A DNA stretch of 32,000 bases. Origin: Okeania sp. GTDB taxonomy: Bacteria; Cyanobacteriota; Cyanobacteriia; Cyanobacteriales; Microcoleaceae. This document shows positions 7,722 through 26,174 of this stretch, in pieces. The translations under genes and the position numbers were made by a program. Position 1 is the stretch's first letter. The number at the start of each line of letters is the position of its first letter. The notes below the pieces were generated by a model, which was given only the letters and a program-made list of their open reading frames with translations, did no database searches and was not told the origin of the DNA. The stretch covers positions 1 to 32,000 of the forward strand of contig NZ_JAYKGW010000039.1 in assembly GCF_035285525.1 (NCBI RefSeq). Direction: 5' to 3'.

Positions 7722-10700
7722 ATGATTAATATCCCAGGTTATCAAATTATTGCCAAAATTTATGAAGGTCCTAATTCTATAGTTTATAGAGCGAAACAAG
7801 AGCCAAATAATTTACCTGTTGTACTTAAACTTAGCCAAAGAAATACCTCTGGGGAATTAGGAAATAATCGATACAAAAAAGAATATGAAATTCTCAAGTC
7901 TTTAAATATTTCTGGAGTAAGTAAGGCTTATGGATTAGAAAAATATCAGAATACTTTAGTGATGGTAACAGAAGATATTGGTGGTACATCTCTCAAAACA
8001 TTAATTGCCTTAGAAAAGTTTACTATTTTAGGCTTTTTAAATTTGGCTATTAAGGTAGCTGAAAGTTTAGGAGAAATTCACAGTTCTAATATTATTCATA
8101 AAGATATTAATCCATCTAATATAATTTTTAATCAGACAACTGGGGAATTAAAAATTATAGATTTTAGTATTTCCTCTCTATTAACTCGCGATCGCTATAA
8201 ACTAGAAAATTCTAATATTTTAGAAGGTACTTTAGCATATATATCTCCGGAACAAACTGGTAGGATGAATTCTGCGATAGACTATCGTACAGATTTTTAT
8301 TCTTTGGGTGCTACTTTTTATGAACTATTAACTCAGGAACTACCTTTTAAGAATACTGATGCGATGGAATTAGTTCATGCTCATATTGCTAAACAACCGA
8401 AACCTCCCCATGAAATCAATCCCGAAATTCCCAAAATATTATCCAATATTATCTTGAAGTTATTAGCAAAAACTCCAGGGGAAAGATACCAAAGTGCTTG
8501 GGGTTTAATTTCTGATTTAGATGAATGTTTAAATCAACTTCAAACAACATCAACAATAGTAGAATTTCCTCTGGGTAGTCAAGATATTTCTGATAAGTTT
8601 CAAATTCCACCAAAGTTGTATGGGAGACAATCAGAAATCTCAGCACTAATGGGAGCTTTTGACCGTGTGAGTAATGGTAAAAAAGAAATGATGTTAGTAA
8701 CTGGTTATTCTGGGATAGGTAAATCAGTTTTAGTACAAACAATTTCTCAACCAATTATTCGTCAAGGTGGATATTTTATTTGGGGAAAATTCGACCAATT
8801 TCAACACAATATTCCTTATTCAGCAATTGTTAGTGCATTCTCGGAATTAGTTAGAATTATTTTAAGTGAAAGTGAAGCTAAATTGCATGAATGGAGAAAT
8901 AAACTTTTAGCAGCTTTTGGTACTAACGGGCAAATTATTATTGATGTAATTCCTGAATTAGAATTAATTGTCGGACCTCAACCAAAAATTCAAGAATTAG
9001 GAGCAACTGAAACTCAAAATCGTTTTAATATTATATTTCAAAAGTTTATTGAATTATTTTGTCAACCAGAACATCCTCTAGTTATTTTTCTTGATGACTT
9101 GCAATGGGCAGATTCTGCTACACTGAAGTTAATTAAATTAATGATGACGGATGAAGAAACAAAGCACTTATTTATAATTGGAGCATATCGAGATAATGAA
9201 GTTAATTATAATCATCATTTAATGATGACTTTAGATGCTATTTGGTCTCAGTCTGGGAATATTAATTATGGGCAAATAAATCAAATTAATTTAACTCCTT
9301 TAAAGTTTGAACATATCACTCAATTAATTGCCGAGACATTACATAGTGATAAAAACTCGGTTCAAGAATTAGCAGAGTTAGTAGAAACTAAAACAGGTGG
9401 AAATCCTTTTTTTGTCAATGAATTTATGAAAACTCTCTATCAGGAAAATTTGCTAAAATTTGATTTGGAAAGGATTCGGTGGGAGTGGGATATGGAGAAA
9501 ATTACCGCACTTGATATTACCGATAATGTGGTGGAGTTAATGATTGGAAAGTTACAAAAATTACCAACTTTAACTCAGAAGGTTGTTAGTTTAGTTGCTT
9601 GTGTCGGAAATCAATTTGATTTGAATACTCTTTCTTTAATTTATGAAAAGGAATCTTATGGAACTTTTCAAGATTTATTACCTGCTATTCAGGAAGGATT
9701 AATTCTACCTGCTTCGGAAACAGAAGCTGAAAATGTAGAATTGAATTTATATCCATTTTTAATTCTGAATTATAGATTTTTGCATGACCGAGTGCAACAA
9801 GCAGCTTACACTTTTATAGATGAATCGGAAAAACAAGCAGTACATCTGAAAATTGGTCGTTTATTGTTAGAAAATACTCCTCCAGAATATCGTGGGGAAC
9901 GAGTGTTTGATTTAGTAGATCATCTAAATTTAGGCAGAACTTTAATTACAGATGAACCAGAAAAAATTGAATTAGCAAAACTCAATTTAGAAGCTAGTAA
10001 AAAAGCTAAAGATGCCACAGCTTATGTAGCTGCTAAAGAATATATTACTGCAGGCATATCTCTATTAAATCAGAATTGTTGGGATAAATATTATGACTTA
10101 ACTTTTCCCGTATATAAAGAAGCAGCAGTAGTAGAATATTTAAACAGTAATTTCTCAGAAAGTGAAGCATTAATCAAAATAATATTAGATCATTCACAAT
10201 CTGTTCTGGAAAAGATAGAAGTTTATAATTTATTGGTGATTCAATATACTTTACGCAGTGATTATGAAAAAGCAATTGTCGCTGGGAAAAAATCTCTAGG
10301 ATTACTAGAAATAGAATTGCCAGAAACAGATTTACAAACAGCAATTAATCAGGAATTTGTTAAAGTTAAAGAAAATTTAGGCGACCAAGAAATTGCTAAC
10401 TTAATTAATCAAAAAGAGAATCAGACATCACAATCTAAAATCGCTTTAGGATTATTAACAAGTTTGATGGCATCTTGTTATTTAACTAATCCGGAACTAT
10501 GGACGTTAATGATACTCAAAGGCGTTAATATTTCCCTAGAATATGGTTCCATTGCCGAATCATGTCTTTGTTATACTAATTATGGAATAATTCTTAATAG
10601 TTATTTCGGAGATTATCACTCCGCATATCAGTTTGGTTTATTAGCTTTAAAACTAACAGATAAATTAGGAATTTCCGGATTAAAATGTAAAGCTTGTGCT

Positions 10701-13878: not shown

Positions 13879-14763
13879 TTAATTATTCCCTGCTGCTTCA
13901 GGACTAAGAATAATAGTATATTCTCCACCATCGCTCTGCTGAATAACTACCACTGGAGGACTAACATTTGACGGGGCGTTTTTTGGGAGGGAGGGAAATA
14001 TATAATATTGACCATTTGTATCAAATAGCAGTCGCCAGATAACTTGGGGAAAGTCAGGGTCAGTTTTGTTATTGTAATCTCGTTCTAATAACTTTTTATA
14101 TAATTCTATATCTCCGATTATACGAAAATTGCTAATATTAGGATTGTCTGTTAAGTCACGAATTTTTCTGCCTAATGGAAGTTGGTTTTCTGGAGTTATT
14201 AAAGTTACTACTGGTAAAGATGATGTTTCGTTGTAAGCGTCTTGAATAGCATCAAGATTTCCTTGAGTTTTACCAAGGAAAAATAGAGTCATTAATAACC
14301 AGAAAATTATGACTATTTCTTTAATTAAAGCTTGGTCATAATCTTGATAGTTAATTTCTGCAAAATAAAAAAATGATTGAATATTACGGGTGATTTTAGG
14401 GCGTTTAATTTTCCCAATCCATCCCAATAATTTCCAACCCAATTTATTAATAAATTTATCTAGTTTTTGAGTTGAAAATTTAATCAGATTAAAAATAATT
14501 GGAATTATAATTGGAAGCAGGATAAAAGAAGCGATCGCAGTCCAAAGAGTACGGAATAAAGTTGAAAAATCTCCACGGGATAAGTTGCCGAAAAATACTT
14601 GTATTGGTACTATTAAAAATGATTCAAATGGTAAATCTAGGCTGGTTACTTCTAGTTGAAAATAACTGAAATAAGCCCAACGATAAATCCAACCTGTGAA
14701 ATATAAACCTATTCCTAAAAAACTTAATAAACCAGCAGTTTTTCCCAACATATTTTTTAGCAA
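13879..14763 (-). CDS. Hypothetical integral membrane protein (294 aa)
   Basis: The N-terminal half has several hydrophobic segments (LLSFLGIGLYFTGWIY, IASFILLPIIIPIIF, IVIIFWLLMTLFFL) and the C-terminal half is soluble. No family motif is recognised. Confidence 0.7.
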   Translation of the reverse strand: MLKNMLGKTAGLLSFLGIGLYFTGWIYRWAYFSYFQLEVTSLDLPFESFLIVPIQVFFGNLSRGDFSTLFRTLWTAIASFILLPIIIPIIFNLIKFSTQKLDKFINKLGWKLLGWIGKIKRPKITRNIQSFFYFAEINYQDYDQALIKEIVIIFWLLMTLFFLGKTQGNLDAIQDAYNETSSLPVVTLITPENQLPLGRKIRDLTDNPNISNFRIIGDIELYKKLLERDYNNKTDPDFPQVIWRLLFDTNGQYYIFPSLPKNAPSNVSPPVVVIQQSDGGEYTIILSPEAAGNN

Positions 14764-14801
14764 TTAACAATTAAAAATTACACCCTAAAATATTTAATAA
14801 A

Positions 14802-14889
14802 TGTAGGTTGGGTTGAGGGACGAAACCCAACAATAATACAATATGATCAGGCTTGTGTTGGGTTTCACTTCGTTCTACAAGGGCCTACA
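14802..14889. mobile_element. MITE of the TGTAGGTTGGGTT...AACCCAACA family
   Basis: The sequence is TGTAGGTTGGGTTGAGGGACGAAACCCAACA ... TGTGTTGGGTTTCACTTCGTTCTACAAGGGCCTACA. Relatives lie at 22156-22230, about 23263-23300, 26417-26460 and 26670-26712. Confidence 0.75.
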
Positions 14890-14980
14890 TTTTAGCCGTC
14901 TAACACACTCTAAAAATTTTGCACTAATATAGTAATTAAACATATTAGGAGTAATTAATATTTCTATCGGGTACTAATCT

Positions 14981-15565
14981 ATGAAGATAACTAAAATTAC
15001 CATCATTTTCCTCATGGCCTGCCTAACTTTAGGAATCCAAGATAGAAGACAAGTAATTGCTAACTCCAAACCTATAGTAGAAACTAAAGCTATATCAACC
15101 ACAAAACTTATTCCTTTTTCCTTCCCTACTAAAGCAACAGTGGTACTAAAAGATGGTGATAGTAGATCGGGTAAACTAACAGATATTAATTCTCAAAATA
15201 TTACTATTAAAAGAGGTCAGAAGATTGCTCAAGAAGCGATCGCTAATATTGATTGGATTGAATTTAATGGAGACATTTGGTGGCCAGCTTCTAGTAAGTA
15301 TACTAAGTTTCGTGGACTGGAAATAGAGACGAAATATAAACCCCGAAATTTTCAGTTACGAATGGATGGCTTGGAATGGGAAGATGCAGAAAACGGTGTT
15401 GCAAATGTTAAACCTGAAGCTGTGGTTGGAGTAGATGAGAGAGAAGGTTTGCCCCGTAGTATAAATACTTCTAATAAGAGTCGTTATATTGTCAGCAAGG
15501 TAAAGTTTGAACCAGATCAACAAATTTTAATTATTACTGCTACTTCTCAATCAAGAACAGAATAG
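14981..15565 (+). CDS. Hypothetical exported protein or lipoprotein (194 aa)
   Basis: The N-terminal signal-like segment is MKITKITIIFLMACLTLG, with a lipobox-like LMAC. No other motif is recognised. Confidence 0.65.
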   Translation: MKITKITIIFLMACLTLGIQDRRQVIANSKPIVETKAISTTKLIPFSFPTKATVVLKDGDSRSGKLTDINSQNITIKRGQKIAQEAIANIDWIEFNGDIWWPASSKYTKFRGLEIETKYKPRNFQLRMDGLEWEDAENGVANVKPEAVVGVDEREGLPRSINTSNKSRYIVSKVKFEPDQQILIITATSQSRTE

Positions 15566-15923
15566 ATATTTCTAGAAAAGAGGGAACAGGGAACACTTAA
15601 CCCACTCCTAACTCCTCCCAGGAGGCAGGGACTATTTATTGTCCCTAGAGAAAAAAAGAAGGAGGAGAAGGAAGACAAGGAAGACAAGGAAGAGGGGGGA
15701 GTGTGGAATTGAAAAAATATAGGGTTGAAATATTCTCTGACGACAAAGAATTAGCCCTGCTCCCAGTAGGGGAATAATTGATAATTTATAAATAAGAATT
15801 GATTGGATTTTTTATTTTTGGAGATATCTAATAGATATTTGCAGAAATTAATAGTTAATTTTTCACAATTTATCTACTATAATTGCTAGAATTTTAATAT
15901 TCATAATCTTTGGGATAATAACT

Positions 15924-16151
15924 ATGCTATCTGTCGAAGAACTAATTAAAGAAGCCTTATCTTTACCGAATATCCAGAGGACACTTTTAGTAGAAAAGTT
16001 GATTGAAAGTCTGGAGTTTGATATAGATGAAAAAATTCAAACTGCTTGGATAAATGAAGCTAAAAAACGTCGCGATGAAATTAAGAATGGTGATATTTTA
16101 CCCATCCCTGGAGAAGAAGCTTTAGCTAAGGTAAGGCGGATTTTAGAATAA
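15924..16151 (+). CDS. Addiction-module antitoxin component (TIGR02574-like small helical protein)
   Basis: The 75-aa protein MLSVEELIKEALSLP...WINEAKKRRDEIKNGDILPIPGEEALAKV has the family's typical pattern. Its stop overlaps the toxin start by 1 nt (TAATG). Confidence 0.8.
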   Translation: MLSVEELIKEALSLPNIQRTLLVEKLIESLEFDIDEKIQTAWINEAKKRRDEIKNGDILPIPGEEALAKVRRILE

Positions 16152-16444
16152 TGAAATATATTTTTCATCCTGCTGCTTTAACAGAATATTCTGAAGCTGT
16201 TGAATTTTATGCAGAGCGTCGAGTAGAAATTGCACAAAAATTTATTAATGCTGTGGAAAATACTATTTTCAAAATAGTTGAATATCCCACTCGTTGGCCT
16301 GCGATTGATCAAGATATTCGTCGATGTCTAATCCAGAAATTTCCTTATGGTATTATATACACAATTGAAGATAATTTTATTCTGATTTTAGCAGTTATGC
16401 ACTGCAGTCGAAAACCTGGATATTGGAAAGATAGGGTTAAGTAA
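16151..16444 (+). CDS. Type II toxin, RelE/ParE family
   Basis: The 97-aa protein reads YIFHPAALTEYSEAVEFY...FPYGIIYTIEDNFILILAVMHCSRKPGYWKDR, which is typical of ParE-like plasmid-stabilisation toxins. It is translationally coupled to the upstream antitoxin. Confidence 0.85.
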   Translation: MKYIFHPAALTEYSEAVEFYAERRVEIAQKFINAVENTIFKIVEYPTRWPAIDQDIRRCLIQKFPYGIIYTIEDNFILILAVMHCSRKPGYWKDRVK

Positions 16445-16567
16445 AAACTACTAAATTTTTGATATTTTTTTACCCTACTTTACTACGATAATTAAAGATT
16501 GTTGGGATTTGAAATATATTCTATTCCCGACTTTCTATTACCTTAAAAAAAAATACTGAATATCGCT

Positions 16568-16813
16568 ATGAGCATTATTATTTCTGATGAAATGTTGTGT
16601 ACCACTAGAATGACCGAATCTGAGATGAAATTGGAAATAGCTGTTATGCTTTTCCAAAAAGAAAAACTAACTTTAGGTCAAGCTAGTCGGTTTGCTGACA
16701 TGAATAGAATTGCTTTTCAGCATTTATTAGCTAGTCGGCAAATTCCAGTTCATTATGACGTAAAAGACTTGGAAAAAGATATTAAAAACTTACAGGAGAT
16801 GGGAATAATATGA
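16568..16813 (+). CDS. UPF0175-family antitoxin (the usual partner of DUF3368/PIN toxins)
   Basis: The 81-aa protein reads ...ESEMKLEIAVMLFQKEKLTLGQASRFADMNRIAFQHLLASRQIPVHYDVKDLEKDIKNL. Its stop overlaps the next ATG in ATGA (16810-16813). Confidence 0.8.
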   Translation: MSIIISDEMLCTTRMTESEMKLEIAVMLFQKEKLTLGQASRFADMNRIAFQHLLASRQIPVHYDVKDLEKDIKNLQEMGII

Positions 16814-16878
16814 TTGTTGTTAGCGATACTTCAGCTATTAATAACTTACCGTCAGTAGGGTGCGTTAGCGAAGCGTAA
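16810..16878 (+). pseudogene. Remnant (first 13 codons or so) of a DUF3368/PIN-domain toxin gene, truncated by a MITE
   Basis: MIVVSDTSAINNL is a typical PIN/DUF3368 N-terminus. From codon 15 the reading runs into the MITE terminal repeat (PSVGCVSEA*). Confidence 0.7.
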
Positions 16879-17046
16879 CGCACCGAAATATTTATCAGCA
16901 AAATTGAATATTTAGCAATACAAATGATTGCTAGTAAACACGTCGGTTTAATATGGTTCATTCGGATGTCGCCGATAGGAAAGCATAACGCATCGGAACA
17001 TTACGGTTTAGGCGGTGCGTTACGCTATCGCTAACGCACCCTACTG
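16853..17046. mobile_element. 194-bp MITE with terminal inverted repeats of about 32 bp, each itself a hairpin
   Basis: The left end is CAGTAGGGTGCGTTAGCGAAGCGTAACGCACC and the right end is GGTGCGTTACGCTATCGCTAACGCACCCTACTG, which reverse-complements to CAGTAGGGTGCGTTAGCGATAGCGTAACGCACC. Confidence 0.85.
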
Positions 17047-17051
17047 GACTA

Positions 17052-17237
17052 TTAATTTTCTTTTCTTCGTTTCAAAGGAGTTTTAATGAATTTGATTTTC
17101 CCTTTCCATTCTTTCTCGAACTGCTTTTGTCTCTCCAGACAATCAGCTAATATTAATTCCGGATCGTAGTTAAAAGCTTTGGCGTGTTCTTCTCGAATTT
17201 GGTAAATTTCTTCTAAAATTTCATCAGGTAACATCAT
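17052..17237 (-). CDS. Small hypothetical protein (61 aa)
   Basis: The protein MMLPDEILEEIYQIREEHAKAFNYDPELILADCLERQKQFEKEWKGKIKFIKTPLKRRKEN is charged and helical. I cannot name a family. Confidence 0.5.
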   Translation of the reverse strand: MMLPDEILEEIYQIREEHAKAFNYDPELILADCLERQKQFEKEWKGKIKFIKTPLKRRKEN

Positions 17238-17267
17238 AGTTTTTTCTTGCTAATTTATATGGTGTAA

Positions 17268-17340
17268 AATCCCCCTAAATCCCCCTTTGAAAGGGGGACT
17301 TTGAATACTCCCCCCTTACAAAGGGGGGCAGGGGGGGATA
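17268..17340. repeat. CCCCCTTTGAAAGGGGG hairpin repeat: 1 unit plus a terminal variant
   Basis: The sequence is AATCCCCCTAAATCCCCCTTTGAAAGGGGGACTTTGAATACTCCCCCCTTACAAAGGGGGGCAGGGGGGGATA. Confidence 0.85.
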
Positions 17341-17463
17341 CTTGCTCTGGCGGTTAAATAGCTAATAACATTAGAAGTAGACAATTAGAATTAAAAATTC
17401 AAAGTTAAAAGAAATAATATTTAGTGTTAGTATACTATTATAATCACTTATTACAAGGAAATA

Positions 17464-17880
17464 ATGCCAGCCAAAGATACTTATCATCAAGCTGTCAAAA
17501 ATGCTTTAATTAAAGATGGTTGGAAAATTTTAGCAGACCCTTATGTAATCAAATACAAAGATGCTGAATTATTTGCCGATTTAGCAGTAGAAAAACCTAT
17601 TGTTGCTCAAAGAAAAGGAGAAAAAATTGTTGTTGAAATTAAAAGCTTTTTAAGTCCCTCACCTATGAGAGATTTTGAAATGGCTTTAGGACAATATATT
17701 TTATATCGAAATTTAATCAATCTTACTCAACCAGAGTATCAAATTTACCTAGCAATTAAAGACAGTGTTTACGAAAACTTTTTTCAACGAGATTCAATTC
17801 AAGATATTACTAAAATAAATCAATTACTTTTGATTATTGTTGATATGGAACAGGAGGAAATTATCAAATGGATAAATTAG
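17464..17880 (+). CDS. xisH: XisH family protein (PD-(D/E)xK-like motif), copy 1
   Basis: The signature is MPAKDTYHQAVKNALIKDGW...FADLAVEK...KIVVEIKSF...ALGQYILYR. It overlaps xisI by 13 nt (ATGGATAAATTAG). Confidence 0.88.
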   Translation: MPAKDTYHQAVKNALIKDGWKILADPYVIKYKDAELFADLAVEKPIVAQRKGEKIVVEIKSFLSPSPMRDFEMALGQYILYRNLINLTQPEYQIYLAIKDSVYENFFQRDSIQDITKINQLLLIIVDMEQEEIIKWIN

Positions 17881-18209
17881 AAAAATATCGTAATTATATT
17901 AAAAAGATATTAACAGAATATCACGAATGGGTTTTAGGGGCAGCAAATTTAGACCGAGAAAGTTGTCTGGTTTTTGACGAGATACACGATCAATATTTTT
18001 GGCTGTTTATGGGTTGGGAAGGGAAGAAAAAAATCAGAAATATTCAAGTTCATATTCGGATTAAAAATGAGAAGATTTATATTGAGGAAGATTGGACGGA
18101 GTCAGGAATGGCTAATGAGTTATTAAGGGAAAATGTATCGAAAGAAGATATTGTTTTAGCTTTCCACGATCCTGAATCTCGTAAGTTAACTGATTTTGCT
18201 GTTGTTTGA
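17868..18209 (+). CDS. xisI: XisI family protein, copy 1
   Basis: The signature is MDKLEKYRNYIKKIL...IRIKNEKIYIEEDWTE.GMANELL...KEDIVLAFHDPESRKLTDFAVV. Confidence 0.88.
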   Translation: MDKLEKYRNYIKKILTEYHEWVLGAANLDRESCLVFDEIHDQYFWLFMGWEGKKKIRNIQVHIRIKNEKIYIEEDWTESGMANELLRENVSKEDIVLAFHDPESRKLTDFAVV

Positions 18210-18210
18210 T

Positions 18211-18326
18211 AATCCCCCTAAATCCCCCTTTGAAAGGGGGACTTTGAAGAACTTCCCCTAAATCCCCCTTTGAAAGGGGGACTTTGAAGAACTCCCCCAT
18301 TTGAAAGGGGGGCAACGGGGGATATA
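18211..18326. repeat. CCCCCTTTGAAAGGGGG hairpin repeat: 2 units plus a terminal variant
   Basis: AATCCCCCTAAATCCCCCTTTGAAAGGGGGACTTTGAAGAACTTCCCCTAAATCCCCCTTTGAAAGGGGGACTTTGAAGAACTCCCCCATTTGAAAGGGGGGCAACGGGGGATATA lies directly after the xisI-1 stop. Confidence 0.85.
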
Positions 18327-18382
18327 AAACTGTACCTCACAAGTATGGGGATTGCTGTAATTTATTTGAGGAAAATAAGGCT

Positions 18383-18475
18383 ATGAAACGAATTATTATT
18401 ACCTCTCTAATCGGAATCACAATCCTGACTACAACTCCCCTAATACTGCTACTATTACCAAAACGGATATACTAA
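18383..18475 (+). pseudogene. Duplicated 5' relic (about 26 homologous codons) of the TPR-CHAT gene
   Basis: MKRIIITSLIGITILTTTPLILLLLP is nearly identical to the start of the 19494 gene (MKRIIITSLIGITTLNITPLILPLLP). Homology is then lost and a stop follows (KRIY*). Confidence 0.75.
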
Positions 18476-18492
18476 GTTATTACAAGGAAATA

Positions 18493-18909
18493 ATGCCAGC
18501 CAAAGATACTTATCATCAAGCTGTAAAAAATGCTTTAACTAAAGATGGTTGGAAAATTACTTTTGACCCTTATCCTATTAAATATAAAGAAGTTAAATTA
18601 TTTGCCGATTTAGCTGGTGAAAAAACAATTTCTGCAACACGAGAAGGGCGTAAAATTGTGATTGAAATTAAAAGTTTCCTGAGTCGTTCTCCTATGCGTG
18701 AATTTGAAACAGCATTAGGGCAATATTTAATTTATCAAACATTTCTTTCTATCACTTATCCTAGTTCTAAAGTTTATTTGGCAGTTAATCACAAAATTTA
18801 TGAAAAGTTTTTTGTACAAATGGCAATTGAATTAATTATAGAAAAATATAAAGTTTCAGTATTAGTCGTTGACATTCAAAAAGAGGAAATAATTAAATGG
18901 ATAAGCTAA
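18493..18909 (+). CDS. xisH: XisH family protein, copy 2
   Basis: The signature is MPAKDTYHQAVKNALTKDGW...FADLAGEK...KIVIEIKSF...ALGQYLIYQ, with the same 13-nt overlap with xisI. Confidence 0.88.
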   Translation: MPAKDTYHQAVKNALTKDGWKITFDPYPIKYKEVKLFADLAGEKTISATREGRKIVIEIKSFLSRSPMREFETALGQYLIYQTFLSITYPSSKVYLAVNHKIYEKFFVQMAIELIIEKYKVSVLVVDIQKEEIIKWIS

Positions 18910-19238
18910 TTAATTATCAAAATATCATCAAACAAATTCTCACTAATTATCAAAGAATATCGGCACAAGTTCCCGATCCTGATATAGATGAAGTATTAAT
19001 ATTTGATGATGAAAGAAGTCAATATCTTTGGTTTAATATTGGCTGGAAAAATGATAGACGAGTTCAAGCTATTTCTGTTTATATTCGGATTAAAAATGAA
19101 AAGATTTATATTGAGGAAGATTGGACGGAAGAAGGAATGGCTAATGAGTTATTAAGGCAAAATGTATCGAAAGAAGATATTGTTTTAGCTTTCCACGATC
19201 CTGAATCTCGTAAGTTAACTGATTTTGCTGTTGTTTAA
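18897..19238 (+). CDS. xisI: XisI family protein, copy 2
   Basis: The protein starts MDKLINYQNIIKQIL. Its last 50 codons or so are almost identical at the DNA level to copy 1 (19084-19238 versus 18055-18209). Confidence 0.88.
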   Translation: MDKLINYQNIIKQILTNYQRISAQVPDPDIDEVLIFDDERSQYLWFNIGWKNDRRVQAISVYIRIKNEKIYIEEDWTEEGMANELLRQNVSKEDIVLAFHDPESRKLTDFAVV

Positions 19239-19241
19239 ATT

Positions 19242-19434
19242 GAGAATCCCCCTAAATCCCCCTTTGAAAGGGGGACTTTGAGAATCCCCCTAAATCCCCC
19301 TTTGAAAGGGGGACTTTGAGAATCCCCCTAAATCCCCCTTTGAAAGGGGGACTTTGAGAATCCCCCTAAATCCCCCTTTGAAAGGGGGACTTTGAAGAAC
19401 TCCCCCCTTTGAAAGGTGGGCAAGGGGGGATATA
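19242..19434. repeat. Tandem 38-bp hairpin repeat x4 plus a terminal variant
   Basis: The unit GAGAATCCCCCTAAATCCCCCTTTGAAAGGGGGACTTT starts at 19242, 19280, 19318 and 19356. The variant GAAGAACTCCCCCCTTTGAAAGGTGGGCAAGGGGGGATATA starts at 19394. Confidence 0.95.
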
Positions 19435-19493
19435 ATACTATTTCTCACAAGTATGGGAATTACTATAATTATTTATTTGAGGAAAATAAGACT

Positions 19494-22090
19494 ATGAAAC
19501 GAATTATTATTACCTCTCTAATCGGAATCACAACTCTGAATATAACTCCCCTAATACTGCCACTATTACCACAAGAGAGTTACGCCCAAACTTCTGACTC
19601 TGAGGCAGAAAAGTTAGAGCAGTTACTAAAAACAGCATCGCAGCAAAGGAAGGGAATACCAATATCAGGAGTCTATAGAAGCATTTCAACAAGCTTTAGT
19701 TATTGCCAGAAAAATTAAAGACCGAAAAAAAGAGGCAGATGCTAACCTTGGTCTTGGTGTCAACTACGATCATATAGGTCAACCACAAGAAGCATTAAAC
19801 TTTTATAACAAAGCTTTGATAATTTTTCGGGAAGTAGGCGATCTCTCAGGTATTTCCACCACTCTTAATAATATTGGTATAGTTTACCGTCAAACAGGTG
19901 AACCCCAAAAAGCATTAGAATACTACGAGGAAGACTTACTTATCAGTCAGAAGATTGGCGATCGCTCCGAAGAAGCGGTTACGCTCAATAACATTGGTGT
20001 AGTTTACCGCCAAATAAGTGAACCTCAAAAAGCATTAGAATACTACCAGCAAGCTTTAGCTATCTGGCAGGAAGTAGGCGATCGCTCTAGAGAAGCTGCT
20101 ACTCTTAATAATATTGGTGCAGTTTACCACACTATAGGTCAACTCCAAAAGGCATTAGAATACTATGAGCAAGACTTACTAATAAATCGGGAAATAGGCG
20201 ATCGCTCAGGTATTTCTACTGCTCTTAATAATATTGGTCTAGTTTACCATCGTATAGGTGAACCTCAAAAAGCGTTAGAATATTACGAGCAAGACTTACT
20301 AATCAGTCGGGAAATAGGCGATCGCTTTGGAGAAGCTATTACTCTCAATAATATTGGTGGAGTCTACGAAAATATAGGTGAACCGCAAAAGGCATTAGAA
20401 TACTAGCAGCAAGCTTTACTTATCAGACAAGAAGTAGGCGATCGCTCTGGGGAAGCTACTACTCTCAATAATATTGGTTTAGTTTACCATGTTATAGGTG
20501 AACCGCAAAAGGCATTAGAATACTACCAGCAAGCTTTACATATCAGGCAAGAAGTAGGCGATATCTCTGGAGAAGCTATTACTTTCAATAATATTGCTTA
20601 TCTTCACCGAGATAACAACGAACCAGAGAAAGCTATACACCACTGGGAAAAGTCAATACAAATTACCCTAAAAATGCGTGCGGGGTTAAAAAAAGAAGAC
20701 CGCAAATATTTTTTAGGAGATAATGACTATAAAGCGAATGCTCTTGTCGATTTTCTCATTGAGCAAAATAAACCTGATGCTGCCTGGCAATGGTATAACC
20801 GAGTTACTACTTTCGACCTCGCTGACTACACTCGCCTTATTGATGCCAAAGTCAAAAACCCAAAAGCTCAAAAACTGATTAACCAATGGCAACAAAACAA
20901 TCAACAATTACAATTTTTCTACAGCAAAATAGAAGATAAATGGACTCCCCAACTTTCCCAACAAATTAACCAGTTACAAGCAGAAACCAGCCTACTCGCA
21001 GAAAACATTAGCAAAGAATGCCCAGAAGTTGCCGAGCTTTTTGAGTTCAAGCCAGAAGACATCGACAAACTTAAAGCCAATATTCCACCAGATACTGTTG
21101 TTATTCAACCTGCTCTTTTAACTGGTAATACAGAATTTCCCGATAGCATCGCCATATTTTTTGTCACCAGAGATAAACCTGTCTTAGTTAAAAAATTTCC
21201 TATAGATAAAAAAGAATTTAATGACATCCTCACAGAATATCGACAGCAACTAGAAAATCCCAACGCCGACGACTACGACATTAACCAAGAAAAACTCTAT
21301 GACTATCTGATTCGCCCAATGGAAGCAGAAATAGCTGCTTACCCCCCCCAAACAACTTGCCATCATCGCTACCGGAAAATTGCGTTATATTCCTTTTGAA
21401 ACCCTATTTGATAATCAAACAGACCAATATTTACTGGAAAAATATCCCATCCACTACCTCACTCGCATCTCTGGCAACAAAAAACCGGAATCAAAAAACA
21501 CTAAACGCCAGAAAGTATTAGCATTTGGAAATCCGACTCCCACAAAATTAAATCTCCCTGGTGCAGAAGAGGAGGCTAAAGCGATCGCCGAAATGTTATC
21601 AAGCAAACATTACATTCGAGAAGAGGCAACCCTCCCTCGTTTTAAAAACGAATCCCTCGGTTTTTCCTTAGTGCATCTCGCTACCCACGGTTGCTTTCAA
21701 AAAGGTGGTTGCCCTGATGTTGGTTTAGAGGAAGGTACTATTTTGTTTGCCAACGATAAAACTTTTAATATCAGAGATGCTGCACTTTTAGGATTAGAAA
21801 ATACAGATTTAATCGTTTTGAGTGCTTGCCAAACTGCCATGGAAGCTAACTCTAACGGTGAAGAAATAGCCGGAGTTGCCTATTTATTTGAGCGTGCCGG
21901 TGCGGATGCTGTCATTGCCAGTTTATGGAATGCCGAGGATGAGACAACCAAGGATATTATGGTGAAATTTTATCAGTATTTGCAACAAGGAATGACCAAG
22001 GTGGAGGCATTACGTCAGGCGAAGTTAAGTTATGCTAGGGAGTATGTCAGTCCGTTTTATTGGTCCCCTTTGATTTTGATAGGAAATTGA
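19494..22090 (+). pseudogene. TPR-repeat / CHAT-domain (caspase-like) protease gene with two frameshifts and one in-frame TAG
   Basis: The gene has a signal-like N-terminus and at least 7 repeats with an exact 120-bp period (GCATTAGAATACTA at 19911, 20031 ... 20511). The CHAT domain retains the catalytic His (LATHG, 21686-21688) and Cys (LSACQT, 21827-21829). The lesions are a frame change within 19630-19660, TAG at 20404-20406 where paralogous repeats have TAC, and a frame change at the C8 run 21342-21349. Confidence 0.8.
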
Positions 22091-22103
22091 AGGAAGAAGG
22101 AGT

Positions 22104-22133
22104 TGTAGGGACGTTGCATGCAACGTCCCTACA
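22104..22133. terminator. 30-bp perfect palindrome after the CHAT gene stop (possible terminator or dispersed-repeat hairpin)
   Basis: TGTAGGGACGTTGCATGCAACGTCCCTACA lies 14 nt after the TGA at 22088-22090. No T run follows. Confidence 0.45.
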
Positions 22134-22155
22134 GAGTCAGGAGGAAGTTAAGCTT

Positions 22156-22230
22156 TGTAGGTTGGGTTGACGTAGGAAACCCAACAATGATTGGTATATG
22201 TTGGGTTCGCTGTCGCTTAACCCAACCTAC
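22156..22230. mobile_element. MITE of the GTAGGTTGGGTT family
   Basis: The sequence is TGTAGGTTGGGTTGACGTAGGAAACCCAACA...TGTTGGGTTCGCTGTCGCTTAACCCAACCTAC. Confidence 0.8.
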
Positions 22231-22275
22231 TACTAAAATTGTGGGTATTTGAGCAAGCAACCACCGAAGACCTCT

Positions 22276-22346
22276 CCCCCAACCCCTCTCCTGCAAGGAG
22301 AGGGGAGTTCTCTCCCCCTTCCCTTGCAGGGAAGGGGGTTGGGGGG
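22276..22346. repeat. Nested GC-rich palindromes (CCCCTCTCCTGCAAGGAGAGGGG and CCCCCTTCCCTTGCAGGGAAGGGGG)
   Basis: The two hairpins are at 22283-22305 and 22314-22338, flanked by CCCCCAACC / GGTTGGGGGG. They lie just 3' of the Uma2 gene stop on the minus strand. Confidence 0.8.
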
Positions 22347-22374
22347 TTAGGTTTTTCTTTTCACTACTTTTAAT

Positions 22375-23220
22375 TTAATCTGGCTCAATACCCAAATCCC
22401 GCAACTTAGCCTCAAGCTCTGCCAACTTCTGTAAAGCGGACTCCTTTTCTTGCTTTTCCTGTTCCGCACGTTGTAAAGCGGACTCTTTTTCCTGCTTTTC
22501 CTGTTCCGCACGTTGTAAAGCAGACTCCTTTTCTTGCTTTTCTTGTTCCGCACGCTCGGCACCAGTAGGAATCACATTTCCCTCAGCATCGCACCAACGT
22601 AACCAAACATCTTCCTTGCCTTCAAATTTTCCTGACCATAAAGTTAACCCCAACTGAACTTTTTCTAACCAAGTTTCCGTCATTTTCTGATAACCGCTTG
22701 CTCTCAACTCATAAACTTCTAGCAGAGAGTCTCCTAACATTTTCAGGGGATCGAAAACCACATAATACCAGGCTCCCATCCGGGCATAATTTTTAAGTTT
22801 ACTACCCAACTCGTTCCCCACTTTGTTAGAAACTATTTCCACGACTACATCTGGAGCTTTACCAAATTTCCAAGTATAATAGCTGCGGTCTTTTTTATGC
22901 TCCCAGTCATCGGGTATTGTCACATCTAGACTCAGAAAAACATCAGGCACTAAAGCTGGTTTTTCTGTAGAGTAAAATACTCCCACATTCGCTCCTGCCA
23001 AAAACTGACTGTTGCCATCTACACCAGACCATGAATCATATAAACAGTTGGTTAGGAGACGTTGTTGTTTTTCTGATTGAAAATTATCCACGGGAGTATC
23101 ATCCTCTATGGTTAAATCGCTAATATCGGGTTCAGGTGGAGTTTCATATTCTATTACATAATAACTAATACCAGGAGTAGTTACTTCTTCTGTTTCATCT
23201 GTTTTGATTTTAGATATCAT
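22375..23220 (-). CDS. Uma2-family (DUF820) endonuclease with a C-terminal repeat tail
   Basis: The typical N-terminal motif is DDTPVDNFQSEKQQRLL, followed by the core ...VPDVFL...PDVVVEIVS.... The C-terminus carries RAEQEKQEKESALQ x3. Confidence 0.85.
   Translation of the reverse strand: MISKIKTDETEEVTTPGISYYVIEYETPPEPDISDLTIEDDTPVDNFQSEKQQRLLTNCLYDSWSGVDGNSQFLAGANVGVFYSTEKPALVPDVFLSLDVTIPDDWEHKKDRSYYTWKFGKAPDVVVEIVSNKVGNELGSKLKNYARMGAWYYVVFDPLKMLGDSLLEVYELRASGYQKMTETWLEKVQLGLTLWSGKFEGKEDVWLRWCDAEGNVIPTGAERAEQEKQEKESALQRAEQEKQEKESALQRAEQEKQEKESALQKLAELEAKLRDLGIEPD
22429..22554. repeat. Intragenic tandem repeat, 3 x 42 bp, encoding RAEQEKQEKESALQ
   Basis: Units start at 22429, 22471 and 22513 (TTGTAAAGCGGACTC(C/T)TTTTC(T/C)TGCTTTTC(C/T)TGTTCCGCACG on the plus strand). 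Confidence 0.9.
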
Positions 23221-23391
23221 AATTTTACTTCCTAATTTACTTTAGGACAAAATATTTAGCTTCGTAGGCTGGGTTAATGTCAAGGAAACCCAACCTAATC
23301 AATTAATTTTTATGGGTAGGCGTTGCCTGTCTAATGGTATGCTTAAAAATTAATTATATTGTTATTCTTTGATTAAGTCAATGTTGTATTT

Positions 23392-23727
23392 TCAACCAAC
23401 AGCATATTCAGTAAATTTCCTCATAAATGGCGTATGAAAAGCAATAACAATATCCTTTTTATCTACTCCATTCGCCACTAACTCAGCAGCAATATCCCTT
23501 TCGGTTGCATTCCATTGAATCCAAACTTTTTCATCTTTAATATCAACATGAATGATACAACTATGTATCCATGTTTGCTCATCCCAACCCAGATAAACTA
23601 TTAGATAACGATTTCTTTCAACATCGAAAATAGTTGCAACTTCTATTTCTCCATGAGCAGGTTTATCTTGACTGTAATCTAATAACCATTCTTGAATACA
23701 ATGACGATATTTTTCTAATTTTTCCAT
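23392..23727 (-). CDS. xisI: XisI family protein, copy 3
   Basis: The signature is MEKLEKYRHCIQEWL...IHVDIKDEKVWIQWNATERDIAAELVANGVDKKDIVIAFHTPFMRKFTEYAVG. Confidence 0.88.
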   Translation of the reverse strand: MEKLEKYRHCIQEWLLDYSQDKPAHGEIEVATIFDVERNRYLIVYLGWDEQTWIHSCIIHVDIKDEKVWIQWNATERDIAAELVANGVDKKDIVIAFHTPFMRKFTEYAVG

Positions 23728-23777
23728 TGGACAATTTCCTCTTTTTCAACTTCATAAATAATTAATTTAATATCATT

Positions 23778-24134
23778 TTATTCAATCATTATTCGTGGTA
23801 ATTCTAATTGAAAAAAAGTGTTATATGTTACTGTTGGTATAGCAAGATAAAGAGTTCTTTCTGGAGCCTTTTTTGTCAGAGCTTTATGGTAAATCATATA
23901 TTGTCCCAAGGCTGTATGAAACTCATATCTTGCTGATGATTGAGGCAAAAAACTTTTAATTTCCACCGCAATTTTTCGTTGACTATTTTCGGCAGCAATT
24001 AATTTTTGAGAACCTAAATCTATTGACATATTTACACCACCAAATCTAATAGAATATGGATCGTGAGTAATGCGCCATCCTTCTTTGATTAGGGCATTTT
24101 TAACAACAGTATGAAAAGCATCTCTAGCAGACAT
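23778..24134 (-). CDS. xisH: XisH family protein, copy 3, shortened by an in-frame TAA (the full-length equivalent would be 23715..24134)
   Basis: The signature is MSARDAFHTVVKNALIKEGW...IDLGSQK...KIAVEIKSF. After TAA (23778-23780) the same frame reads NDIKLIIYEVEKEEIVQWKN*. That matches the XisH C-terminus and restores the 13-nt overlap with xisI. Confidence 0.8.
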   Translation of the reverse strand: MSARDAFHTVVKNALIKEGWRITHDPYSIRFGGVNMSIDLGSQKLIAAENSQRKIAVEIKSFLPQSSARYEFHTALGQYMIYHKALTKKAPERTLYLAIPTVTYNTFFQLELPRIMIE

Positions 24135-24221
24135 ATTTAAGGGACATTAACTTGATTTTGATTGTATTTTACCTCAATAGTCACTCACAGGCAAGATGCC
24201 TGTGCTACAGAGAGCGATATC

Positions 24222-26174
24222 TCAAATTTTCAGAATCCCTTCTGGATTTACTGATAATAATTTTCGCTTTTGTAAACCTTCTTTTGAAATAATTTCATTT
24301 GCTGCTAATAATCCACTACTAACTGCTCTTTCCATTAAACCACAAGGAAAGGGCATTTTTACCCAATCTCCAGCAAACATTAAGTTAGAAATACCACTAT
24401 TAGTTTCGGGACGTTCCTGATAACTACCTGGAGGATAAGCGGAAAAGTTTTTCTGATTTACTAACTCTCTATGCAACAAGTTAGCATCTTTTAATTCCGG
24501 TACAACTTCATATAATTCTTCTGTAAAAGTTTTCAGTAATTTTTCTTGAGTAGGAAATTGTTTTTCTTTATAACAATAAGCGTGTAATTCCACTACACTA
24601 CCACCGGTTTTTTCATGCCATTCAATAAATTGTTCTTGAATGCGATGATAGAGAGTAATACTATCAGTTAATTCATAGCCAGATAGAGAAGTAAAGTTGC
24701 TATGTTGCCATGCAAAATCTCGGTCAAACCAAAAACGACAGACTGCAAAAGGGTCAGCTATATCTAATTTTTGAATCTGAGATTTAACATTTTGATTTAC
24801 TTCCCCTTCCATTAAATTAAATAAGTTTTTAACTCCGGGAACATCTGTAGCTAAAACATAATAATCTGCTGTAATTTCTGTAGAAATAATTTCTGAGTTA
24901 TTTTCCATTATGCCAACTAATTTAACTTCATTTTCTTGATTTTCAGTAATTTTATAACGGGATAAATCTCGTTTTGCCGGACCTGCTAATACTTTTCCAT
25001 TTCTATCATAAACTGCCCCGTGACAAGGACAGTAAAATTTGCCATCTTCCGCTAATTCCACAGTACAACCTTGATGAGTACAAGTTAGAGAAATAGCTTC
25101 ATTTTCATCAGAATTAGGTTTAATAGCAAAGAGGCGATCGCTCGAACCAAAATATTTAACTTCCCGATTATTAATTTCCAAATTACGTTCTACCCAAAAA
25201 GGAATTAAATTTTTTATTTCTCCTAACTGATAACTAATTGAACTAATTTTATTGTCTTGCCAATTAATGTTACTAACCCCAACATCAGTGAAAATTTTAC
25301 CTCCTTGATTCTGAATTTCTTGAGCAATAGGTTGTACTAAACTGGTACCCATATCTTGTCTTGTACCATTAAAAGCTAAACCTTCTGGATTGCCAAAAAA
25401 ATAGAAGTGAAAAAACTGCATTAATTCGGCAACACTCAATTTATCTGGAGCATTCAGACTAGATTTAGTAAAAGGTAAAAAATACAAATCGTACAATCCT
25501 TGAGGGAAATCTTTTTCCACCCATTCCGCTACAGATAAATTGTCAAGTTGCTGATAAGTTTTCTCTACTTGAAAGCCACCTATAGCTCGAAAAACTTCCC
25601 AATGTTTAGGTTTAATTAAATTAATTCCCCATCTCAATCTATTAGGAGAAGAAATTCCTAAATCTACTATATTCCAAGGAAAAGCAGAACTGTTAGGACG
25701 AAAAATTTCTGGTTGATATTTTCCTTCTTTAAACACCAAAGAATAAAATTCTAAAGATTGAAAATTATTGGTAATATTTAGTTCTTCTACCAAACTATTC
25801 AGATTATAATATTGAGGGAAAAAACCATGAAAACCATGTTCCATCATAAATTTTTCTCCCTCCACATCAACAGACCAACTAGCAATTTTACCTCCTAGTT
25901 GTGGAGATTTTTCTAATAAAGTAACCGTAAAACCTCGCTGACTAAGTTCATAAGCACAAGCTAATCCTGCTAATCCAGCGCCAATTACTACTACACTTTT
26001 AGATTTGTTTAAATATTTTGGTAAATCTAGATTATTTTGATTAAAAACTGTTGGTTTAGGTTTATAAAATCGAGAATAACCGAGTAAGCTAGTAGCAGCT
26101 CCAATAGTTAATAATTTGAGAATTGTTCGTCGTGAAACTGATGGAAATGAGTTGAGATTAGTTGATTGATTCAT
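24222..26174 (-). CDS. FAD-dependent oxidoreductase (amine-oxidase/phytoene-desaturase-like fold) with a twin-arginine signal and an inserted b6f/bc1-type Rieske [2Fe-2S] domain
   Basis: The Tat-like motif is SRRTILKLLTIGAATSLL (RR at 26127-26132). The dinucleotide fold is VVVIGAGLAGLACAYELSQRGFTVTLLEKSPQLGGK. The Rieske motif CTHQGCTVELAEDGKFYCPCHGAVYD lies in an insert at about 24900-25202. The C-terminus carries the FAGDW motif. Confidence 0.85.
   Translation of the reverse strand: MNQSTNLNSFPSVSRRTILKLLTIGAATSLLGYSRFYKPKPTVFNQNNLDLPKYLNKSKSVVVIGAGLAGLACAYELSQRGFTVTLLEKSPQLGGKIASWSVDVEGEKFMMEHGFHGFFPQYYNLNSLVEELNITNNFQSLEFYSLVFKEGKYQPEIFRPNSSAFPWNIVDLGISSPNRLRWGINLIKPKHWEVFRAIGGFQVEKTYQQLDNLSVAEWVEKDFPQGLYDLYFLPFTKSSLNAPDKLSVAELMQFFHFYFFGNPEGLAFNGTRQDMGTSLVQPIAQEIQNQGGKIFTDVGVSNINWQDNKISSISYQLGEIKNLIPFWVERNLEINNREVKYFGSSDRLFAIKPNSDENEAISLTCTHQGCTVELAEDGKFYCPCHGAVYDRNGKVLAGPAKRDLSRYKITENQENEVKLVGIMENNSEIISTEITADYYVLATDVPGVKNLFNLMEGEVNQNVKSQIQKLDIADPFAVCRFWFDRDFAWQHSNFTSLSGYELTDSITLYHRIQEQFIEWHEKTGGSVVELHAYCYKEKQFPTQEKLLKTFTEELYEVVPELKDANLLHRELVNQKNFSAYPPGSYQERPETNSGISNLMFAGDWVKMPFPCGLMERAVSSGLLAANEIISKEGLQKRKLLSVNPEGILKI

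Follow-up and report, generated by a model that had tools for sequence, protein, structure and literature searches.

The window analysed here, a 32-kb stretch of cyanobacterial DNA (positions 1 to 32,000 of contig NZ_JAYKGW010000039.1), holds an 8-kb island (15924-24134) in which three xisH-xisI (xisHI) gene pairs lie among toxin-antitoxin (TA) and nuclease genes, and the question it raises is what these pairs do outside the system from which they were named. The two genes are labelled 'fdxN element excision controlling factors' in thousands of genomes, a label that goes back to one genetic study in one strain. Pairs without xisF occur in Beggiatoaceae and non-heterocystous cyanobacteria, with a function described as 'still to be disclosed' (PMC4853749; PMC2674450) and, outside the fdxN element, openly called unknown (PMC2674450). 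In this study, the window was compared with about 80 other genomes. The comparison suggests that xisHI forms a nuclease-first, TA-like cassette, situated in a variable islet of selfish two-gene modules; judged from sequence, we consider the chances of this reading to be even. It is based on a conserved 13-nucleotide (nt) overlap of the two genes, the lack of association with recombinases, a gradient of TA genes towards the pair, asymmetric decay, carriage on plasmids and fusions of XisI to an antitoxin domain. A preliminary description of the island had proposed a selfish or defensive nuclease-plus-partner module that acts independently of heterocyst DNA rearrangement. Of this proposal, the TA-like and recombinase-independent character is backed by the comparative tests, while a function in defence is not supported statistically.

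The three pairs are organized as follows (lengths in amino acids, aa; E, expectation value).

17464-17880 (+): xisH1, intact, 138 aa; Pfam PF08814, E 2.5e-56
17868-18209 (+): xisI1, intact, 113 aa; Pfam PF08869, E 1.4e-40; PDB 2nwv, E 3e-38
18493-18909 (+): xisH2, intact, 138 aa; Pfam E 1.2e-54
18897-19238 (+): xisI2, intact, 113 aa; Pfam E 7e-42
23392-23727 (-): xisI3, intact, 111 aa; Pfam E 1.5e-42
23715-24134 (-): xisH3, nonsense mutation, open reading frame (ORF) ending at 23778 (118 aa); Pfam E 9.7e-47, profile positions 1-116 of 134

Both families are thus recognised by Pfam in all three of the pairs that had been described, but the xisH gene of pair 3 is defective, because an in-frame TAA occupies codon 119, where relatives have Glu. 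The 20 codons after this stop (NDIKLIIYEVEKEEIVQWKN) stay in frame up to the overlap with xisI3, which is merely a relic (ATGGAAAAATTAG), and the part lost from XisH3 includes the last two beta strands (strands 122-137 in the AlphaFold model of XisH1). An overlap of the form ATGGA(T/A)AAATTAG had been ascribed to each pair. Its length of 13 nt holds for pair 1 (ATGGATAAATTAG) and pair 2, but the sequence in pair 2 is ATGGATAAGCTAA and the overlap of pair 3 is vestigial. The AGGAGG Shine-Dalgarno (SD) sequence of xisI1 sits within xisH1.

This architecture is a property of the family. A protein search with XisH returned 2,525 clusters, and a scan of one genome per species gave at least 588 XisH loci. 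Of these, 79 were kept; they represent all orders of cyanobacteria as well as Acidobacteriota and Chloroflexi. In these 79 loci xisI lies downstream of xisH almost without exception. The 13-nt overlap is exact in 76 of 87 scored junctions from three phyla and follows the pattern ATGGAnnnnnTAR. Upstream of the start codon, at a distance of 7-18 nt, 88 of 96 intact xisI genes carry a GAGG-type SD, which is encoded by a conserved 'EE(I/V)' at the XisH C-terminus. Two small, adjacent, co-oriented and overlapping genes, a trait of type II TA systems, are therefore found in pairs 1 and 2 and at 76 of the 87 junctions.

The first gene encodes a nuclease-like protein. XisH was classed as a PD-(D/E)xK protein in 2012 (PMC3424549), and the PD-(D/E)xK-like pattern that the preliminary description had read from the three XisH copies was confirmed: the motif (A/I)DL...(V/I)EIKSF is present in each of them and corresponds to D39, E58 and K60, all found in each of the three copies. 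None of these three residues varies among 72 XisH proteins, and the same holds for D5, H8, W20, D25, Q77 and Y81. XisH1 matches the PDB entries 2inb and 2okf (E 1e-34). Its AlphaFold model, with a predicted local distance difference test score (pLDDT) of 82, superimposes on them with template modelling (TM) scores of 0.84-0.85 when normalised to the query and 0.90-0.91 when normalised to the target. Beyond the XisH entries the model matches AF2093 and then, weakly, restriction and nicking enzymes.

Anabaena/Nostoc PCC 7120, the source of the fdxN element, has one of the closest known systems. It shares both families (PF08814 and PF08869) and the tight xisH-first operon with the window, and the folds match the solved proteins of Anabaena and Nostoc (2okf, 2inb, 2nvm and 2nwv). 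The window differs in having three divergent copies side by side, TA genes rather than nif or fdx genes as neighbours, no recognisable excision element and no XisF-type recombinase. The last point had been noted before and was borne out here. Pfam revealed no recombinase, integrase or transposase among the window ORFs of at least 90 aa, and jackhmmer probes with gamma-delta resolvase, Hin, phiC31 integrase and XerD, which were run without a positive control in the data set, matched nothing in the window. With the same probes, no serine-recombinase homologue was found in 90 loci (within 10 kb of xisHI, including the 79 genomes), and tyrosine recombinases were found in one locus only. TnpB occurs in three loci. 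Neither an interrupted housekeeping gene nor long direct repeats were seen around the cluster; short att-like sites are unrecognisable without a recombinase. A large serine recombinase of the XisF type encoded with the pair, as the fdxN system requires, was accordingly found neither in the window nor within 10 kb in the 79 other loci. Okeania spp., the closest relatives of the source organism, are non-heterocystous, and the host is probably non-heterocystous as well.

Serine-integrase directionality factors are known to have been recruited from unrelated proteins and often have another primary function. It could be argued that XisH and XisI work in trans, as accessory or directionality factors for a serine recombinase elsewhere in the genome, as they do for the Anabaena fdxN element; the copies of the window would then serve excision or inversion events that are not visible within it. 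This is the only role with experimental support, both genes being required for XisF activity according to the literature, and in Calothrix NIES-4101 three xisHI operons lie outside its nif elements, alongside eight serine recombinases. XisI is also listed among the directionality factors (PMC5311408), next to which Bxb1 gp47, phiC31 gp3 and SPbeta SprB may be placed; xisHI differs from these in that none of the 79 loci examined has an integrase partner nearby. Given the absence of serine recombinases within 10 kb in the 79 genomes and in the 32-kb window, we regard this explanation as having a low probability. Members of the family also occur in groups without a reported XisF homologue (non-heterocystous cyanobacteria, Acidobacteriota, Chloroflexi and Beggiatoaceae), and three divergent adjacent pairs would hardly be needed for a single recombinase.

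Accessory factors of equal standing should also be lost equally often, which is not what was observed. Every copy in 81 sources was assigned to a decay class by profile searches of six-frame translations, with the following counts.

xisH and xisI both intact: 82
xisH broken, xisI intact: 11
Intact xisI without xisH: 3
Both broken: 3
xisH intact, xisI 'broken' (divergent N-terminus, probably intact): 1
xisH intact, no xisI: 0

For 11 against 1, and with gene length allowed for, we calculated a one-sided probability of about 0.008. In total, xisI was kept in 14 cases, among them pair 3 of the window and the syntenic Okeania locus, which kept xisI2 without xisH2. The toxin-like gene alone (0-1 cases) against its partner alone (14 cases) is the genomic signature of a type II TA system. 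Since the loci were ascertained via XisH, a lone intact xisH would have shown up, and the sampling bias runs against the result. Asymmetric loss is predicted for a pair in which one gene is harmful alone and is not predicted for two equal co-factors, for which the observed ratio of about 11-14 to 0-1 would be surprising.

Plasmids and published genomes show the same tendency. XisHI pairs were found on 40 plasmids, some of them of 35-53 kb, and on these XisI accompanies XisH essentially always; for a partial xisH of 'Nostoc azollae' XisI was not listed, yet an unannotated xisI is adjacent. XisI itself occurs on 47 plasmid records (53 places), of which about 12-14 have no annotated xisH under the best match. 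In Thiomargarita, 4 xisH genes were reported against 7 xisI genes in one genome and 22 against 32 in another (PMC10756260).

The neighbourhood of the pairs was analysed by calling ORFs in the 79 loci, clustering the neighbours and annotating recurrent clusters by Pfam. Recurrent neighbours are Uma2, seven TA families, a TIR/SEFIR-FGE protein, an EAD4-TPR protein, WD40 proteins and aconitase B. Counting the Pfam-verified TA families (PIN, HicA, HicB, ParE, DUF433, DUF5615 and DUF2283), TA-family ORFs become rarer with distance from xisHI.

Within 2.5 kb: 27 of 467 ORFs
2.5-6.5 kb: 15 of 488 ORFs
Beyond 6.5 kb: 3 of 352 ORFs

The difference between near and far corresponds to an odds ratio of 7.1 (Fisher, p = 1e-4). 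Half of these TA genes lie no more than 600 nt from the pair, and 22 of the 79 loci have a TA gene within 2.5 kb (25 if two unverified families are counted). It had been anticipated that xisHI would be enriched near TA or defence genes rather than near recombinases. This is true for TA genes (27/467 against 3/352), and no link to recombinases emerged; for defence genes, as recognised by PADLOC, it is not. Several xisHI copies are present in 14 of the 79 loci. The aconitase B gene lies near xisHI in 12 of the 79 genomes, in 10 of them within 2.5 kb (several of the loci L013-L050, for example L039 1649-4255), which looks like a conserved insertion site.

Alternatively, XisH and XisI might form a two-subunit nuclease that benefits the host in restriction-like or abortive-infection defence or in repair, with XisI as targeting or regulatory subunit rather than antidote. 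Some plasmid settings are suggestive of this. In Euhalothece pEu2, xisH-xisI-Uma2 is located between hsdM and hsdS-hsdR of a type I restriction-modification operon (L098 5998-7359), on a 42-kb Tolypothrix plasmid the same three genes have a helicase/DUF1156 gene pair on one side and a Swt1-HEPN gene on the other (L099 11757-13186), and on a 35-kb Planktothrix plasmid xisHI stands beside a 'putative restriction enzyme'. Furthermore, TIR/SEFIR, HEPN, iSTAND and EAD4-TPR genes recur near xisHI, and in Lyngbya majuscula transcription of xisHI has been reported to start from a promoter with a putative LexA site, 33 bp upstream of xisH (PMC2674450). However, no PADLOC model matches XisH or XisI. When near and far ORFs were compared, recognised defence systems were not clearly more numerous close to xisHI, the hits being mostly one methyltransferase and cross-matches of ABC-ATPases, and xisH was found in 0 of 50,697 phage genomes. 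A methyltransferase partner guarding the own DNA is lacking, and the survival of xisI, but never of xisH, on its own is not what a heteromeric enzyme predicts. We therefore consider a host-beneficial enzyme unlikely. An anti-phage role is not supported statistically, and the two plasmid examples inside restriction-type operons are anecdotal.

Uma2 directly flanks xisHI in the window, where it immediately follows xisH3-xisI3 on the minus strand, on the two plasmids and in about 7 of the 79 loci. The order xisH-xisI-Uma2 on one strand is common to the window (22375-24134, -), pEu2 and the Tolypothrix plasmid. As an obligate third component Uma2 was rejected, since it is as common far from xisHI as near; Pfam tallies of near and far ORFs, which were made on random samples of 150 ORFs each and are given for the best 25 families of a longer list, had poor resolution. 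The end of the Uma2 gene in the window (22430-22555) consists of three tandem 42-nt repeats, each encoding AERAEQEKQEKESALQR (14 aa), an unusual coiled-coil-like tail.

The three pairs also differ in a manner that is informative for the TA-like reading. Pairs 1 and 2 are a tandem duplication. Besides the pair, its unit of about 1.0-1.1 kb carries hairpin repeat arrays and the duplicated first 90 nt of the TPR-CHAT gene located downstream. Identity between the two units is 97% in the first 60 nt of xisH, 93-98% in the final 170 nt of xisI and about 90% downstream, and it drops to 35-65% in the stretch that runs from the 3' half of xisH through the 5' half of xisI. This profile, with conserved ends around a diverged core, agrees with the mosaic cores of the preliminary description. 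XisH2, with a nearly identical 5' end and a diverged core, is 59% identical to XisH1. Across the family, the variable parts are XisH 90-135 and XisI 20-60, which form one contiguous stretch, the same that differs between pairs 1 and 2. The XisH paralogues of the window are 44-59% identical to one another; XisH1 shares 75-93% identity with proteins of Okeania, Planktothrix, Microcystis, Dolichospermum, Dactylococcopsis and others. Such divergence between neighbours and likeness across orders fits old specificity types that have spread horizontally.

The partner gene encodes a protein with a fold of its own. The XisI model (pLDDT 92.6) superimposes on 2nwv with a TM score of 0.93. A profile search returned 2,225 XisI clusters at 50% identity, nearly all of them free-standing proteins 110-115 aa long; in some proteins two or three XisI units follow one another in tandem (P0381, P0354, P0289), and no XisH-XisI fusion was found among the best 150 XisI relatives. 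In three protein clusters (P0186, P0194, P0237) a RelB-like antitoxin domain (PF18506) is fused to a full XisI, with Thr in place of the XisI Met1. These fusions are located on metagenome contigs (L093 346-909, L094 1205-1768) together with Phd, PIN and UPF0175 genes and without xisH. NCBIfam gave no match for XisH or XisI.

Upstream of xisH, seven loci (L027, L031, L033, L038, L043, L048, L053) have a TATAAT box followed by an AGGTGnGT...ACnCACCT palindrome, about 20-50 nt before the xisH ATG. Its position is operator-like, it belongs to one xisH subfamily and not to the whole family, and it is statistically weak overall. Some of the palindromes upstream of xisH are HIP1 or miniature inverted-repeat transposable element (MITE) sequences.

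Several observations weigh against a TA-like cassette. The sole genetics, as far as relayed by later papers, places both proteins in XisF-dependent excision (Ramaswamy et al., 1997, via PMC4874684 and PMC5311408). In a Foldseek search of the PDB the XisI model matched XisI entries only, with no recognisable DNA-binding or antitoxin domain, and no convincing conserved operator was found upstream of xisH, where palindromes in several loci are only slightly above shuffled expectation. Due to this fold and the lack of a clear operator, classical antitoxin autoregulation is not evident. The association with TA genes can also come from shared insertion hot spots. Broken xisH genes stem partly from draft or metagenome assemblies, in which sequencing frameshifts are possible. 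Finally, xisHI is unusually well conserved for a conflict gene.

With these points in mind, we propose the following mechanism for a TA-like xisHI cassette. XisH has the fold and the residues of a minimal PD-(D/E)xK nuclease with the triad D39, E58-x-K60; it would be Mg-dependent, and its activity and substrate are deduced from this likeness. XisI might be the cognate partner that binds XisH and keeps it harmless or limits its action, so that XisH would be harmful alone and XisI would neutralise it. That both are always made together is shown by the gene architecture, with the xisI start 13 nt before the xisH stop and the SD encoded in the XisH C-terminus. Loss of the cassette or stress would then free XisH. 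Potentially, the variable C-terminal half of XisH and N-terminal half of XisI, between conserved ends, set the cognate specificity and are exchanged as a cassette by recombination. The role in Anabaena fdxN excision might be a secondary recruitment (exaptation) of one such pair by the XisF system. Taken as a whole, the idea that XisH-XisI forms a large unrecognised TA or abortive-infection-type family, in which a DNase is combined with a private antidote and a specificity cassette and from which the fdxN role was exapted, is one that we put at somewhat below even.

Such a family would have known counterparts. Toxin-first type II TA systems (HigBA, HicAB, MqsRA) likewise consist of two small co-oriented overlapping genes, are multi-copy, plasmid-borne and patchy, cluster with other TA loci, and lose the toxin-like gene first while the partner is kept. 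In contrast to these, the presumed toxin of xisHI is a DNase-type PD-(D/E)xK protein and not an RNase or translation inhibitor, and XisI has a unique fold without a ribbon-helix-helix, helix-turn-helix or Phd-type DNA-binding domain. Nuclease-immunity pairs (colicin DNase-Im, barnase-barstar and polymorphic toxin cassettes) also combine a small nuclease with a small cognate protein, have orphan partner genes and show conserved ends around a diverged core that spans the gene junction. XisHI differs from them in lacking a secretion or delivery domain and a signal peptide, and is intracellular.

The genes and the kind of system are already known, and it is plausible that xisHI as a TA-like family would be new: in the full-text literature, with most subscription journals outside its coverage, no paper was found that proposes xisHI as a TA or defence module. 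If the reading is correct, the fdxN annotation is misleading for nearly all xisHI copies, cyanobacteria possess another abundant TA family with a DNase-type enzyme as toxin, and a selfish module has been domesticated by a developmental recombination switch, the fdxN system.

The remaining features of the island support its description as a gathering place of such modules. A hidden Markov model (HMM) check had been suggested for XisH, XisI, Uma2, CHAT, ParE and UPF0175, and Pfam found every one of these families. The ParE/RelE toxin with its antitoxin and the Uma2 endonuclease are thereby verified. The features other than the xisHI pairs are as follows.

15924-16151 (+): Unstab_antitox antitoxin of the ParE module, 75 aa; Pfam PF09720, E 1.7e-15
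16151-16444 (+): ParE/RelE-type toxin, intact, 97 aa; Pfam PF05016, E 8.8e-11, full length
16568-16813 (+): UPF0175 antitoxin, intact, 81 aa, orphan; Pfam PF03683, E 8.8e-23
16810-16848 (+): DUF3368/PIN toxin remnant of 13 codons, MIVVSDTSAINNL, equal to residues 1-13 of Okeania L001:5445-5936
16853-17046 (no strand): MITE-like palindromic element, 194 bp, with perfect inverted arms at 16853-16885 and 17013-17046
18213-18298 (no strand): tandem 40-nt hairpin repeats (CCCCCTAAATCCCCCTTTGAAAGGGGGACTTTGA type) at the end of unit 1; Tandem Repeats Finder, 2.2 copies, 95% matches
18383-18472 (+): copied 5' fragment of the TPR-CHAT gene (MKRIIITSLIGIT...), 90% identity to 19471-19583
19240-19406 (no strand): tandem 38-nt hairpin repeats, 4.3 copies, 98% matches
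19494-22090 (+): TPR-CHAT (caspase-like protease) pseudogene; Pfam TPR_12 at 19816-20406, CHAT at 21380-22090, fragments in all at 19416-22090
22375-23220 (-): Uma2 (restriction-endonuclease fold), 281 aa; Pfam PF05685, E 1.2e-14

The two genes of the ParE module are adjacent, and the antitoxin stop and the ParE start have one base in common, at 16151. The best-supported reading of the region as a whole is a small variable island that gathers selfish two-gene modules in a filamentous cyanobacterium related to Okeania.

How variable the island is can be seen from the locus L001 of Okeania sp. SIO2B3, which is syntenic with the window and contains the two flanking genes, UPF0175, DUF3368, a TPR-CHAT protein of 1180 aa, one XisH and two XisI. 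The Okeania XisH and the first XisI (XisI_a) are the counterparts of window pair 1, with 93% and 94% identity, while the flanking genes are only 65-67% identical. The second, orphan XisI (XisI_b) is the counterpart of window XisI2 (92% identity). Upstream of it about the last 25 nt of xisH2 remain, from which we conclude that Okeania deleted xisH2 and kept xisI2. The xisHI units are placed differently relative to the CHAT gene in the two genomes, and the Okeania locus is without the ParE module, Uma2 and pair 3. Cassettes are gained and lost on a short evolutionary scale.

The same locus explains the decayed genes of the window. The preliminary description had reported a UPF0175 antitoxin with a destroyed PIN toxin and a decaying TPR-CHAT protease gene, and the Okeania orthologues confirm both. 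The UPF0175 protein is 95% identical to its Okeania orthologue, which sits before an intact DUF3368 PIN gene of 163 aa. In the window the PIN codons from 16810 on, which overlap the UPF0175 end by ATGA, are identical to the start of this gene, until after 13 codons the 194-bp element with its 33-nt perfect inverted ends (CAGTAGGGTGCGTTAGCGAAGCGTAACGCACC...) breaks it off. The UPF0175-PIN (DUF3368) TA module is hence incomplete, the antitoxin being whole and the toxin reduced to 13 codons. A similar palindrome, GGTGCGTTA...TAACGCACC, lies upstream of xisH in locus L049.

The intact Okeania TPR-CHAT protein of 1180 aa aligns with the window by tblastn in four overlapping pieces (residues 1-53, 46-389, 370-940 and 936-1180) that span 19494-22087. 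In the window this gene has therefore become a pseudogene. It is shortened and frame-shifted, with about 0.9 kb of TPR repeats gone, and is broken up into at least four frames or ORFs, so that no continuous ORF is left.

In view of this decay, the cluster might be a gene graveyard in a permissive intergenic zone, with xisHI copies that have no function in this genome. The destroyed PIN gene, the fragmented CHAT gene, the nonsense codon in xisH3 and the MITE and hairpin arrays in the spacers would all be expected there. Pairs 1 and 2, however, are wholly intact and retain the invariant residues, the overlap and the SD. Moreover, XisH1 and XisI1 are 93-94% identical to their Okeania counterparts against 65-67% for the flanks, which indicates purifying selection or recent transfer. 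A graveyard is thus very unlikely.

Arrays of a 38-40-nt hairpin unit (ATCCCCCTAAATCCCCCTTTGAAAGGGGGACTTTGA) are found just upstream of xisH1 (17263-17338), after xisI1 (18213-18298) and after xisI2 (19240-19406). Possibly they delimit the duplicated xisHI unit or serve as terminators, and they give rise to spurious minus-strand ORFs (PPFKGG...). Between the PIN remnant and xisH1 lies a 61-aa ORF (17052-17237, -; MMLPDEILEEIYQIREEHAKAF...) with no match in Pfam or NCBIfam and no counterpart at the syntenic Okeania locus. This ORF might be one more orphaned component of a small module. Rfam had no match within 14000-26000, and a promoter and terminator scan gave nothing above chance. A perfect hairpin with a 13-bp stem (TGTAGGGACGTTGCATGCAACGTCCCTACA) is located at 22104-22133 between the convergent CHAT pseudogene and Uma2 gene; it probably serves as a terminator or is one more of the small palindromic elements.

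Elsewhere in the 32-kb window Pfam recognises RTX proteins, a Rieske protein and proteins with GDYXXLXY and DUF2157 domains. Two unusual proteins are encoded in the flanks of the island. At 24222-26174 (-) a 650-aa flavoprotein of the amine-oxidase type carries an inserted Rieske domain in its middle part, and at 7722-13148 (+) a multidomain protein of 1808 aa combines a Ser/Thr kinase with AAA_16, TPR, GAF and histidine kinase domains.

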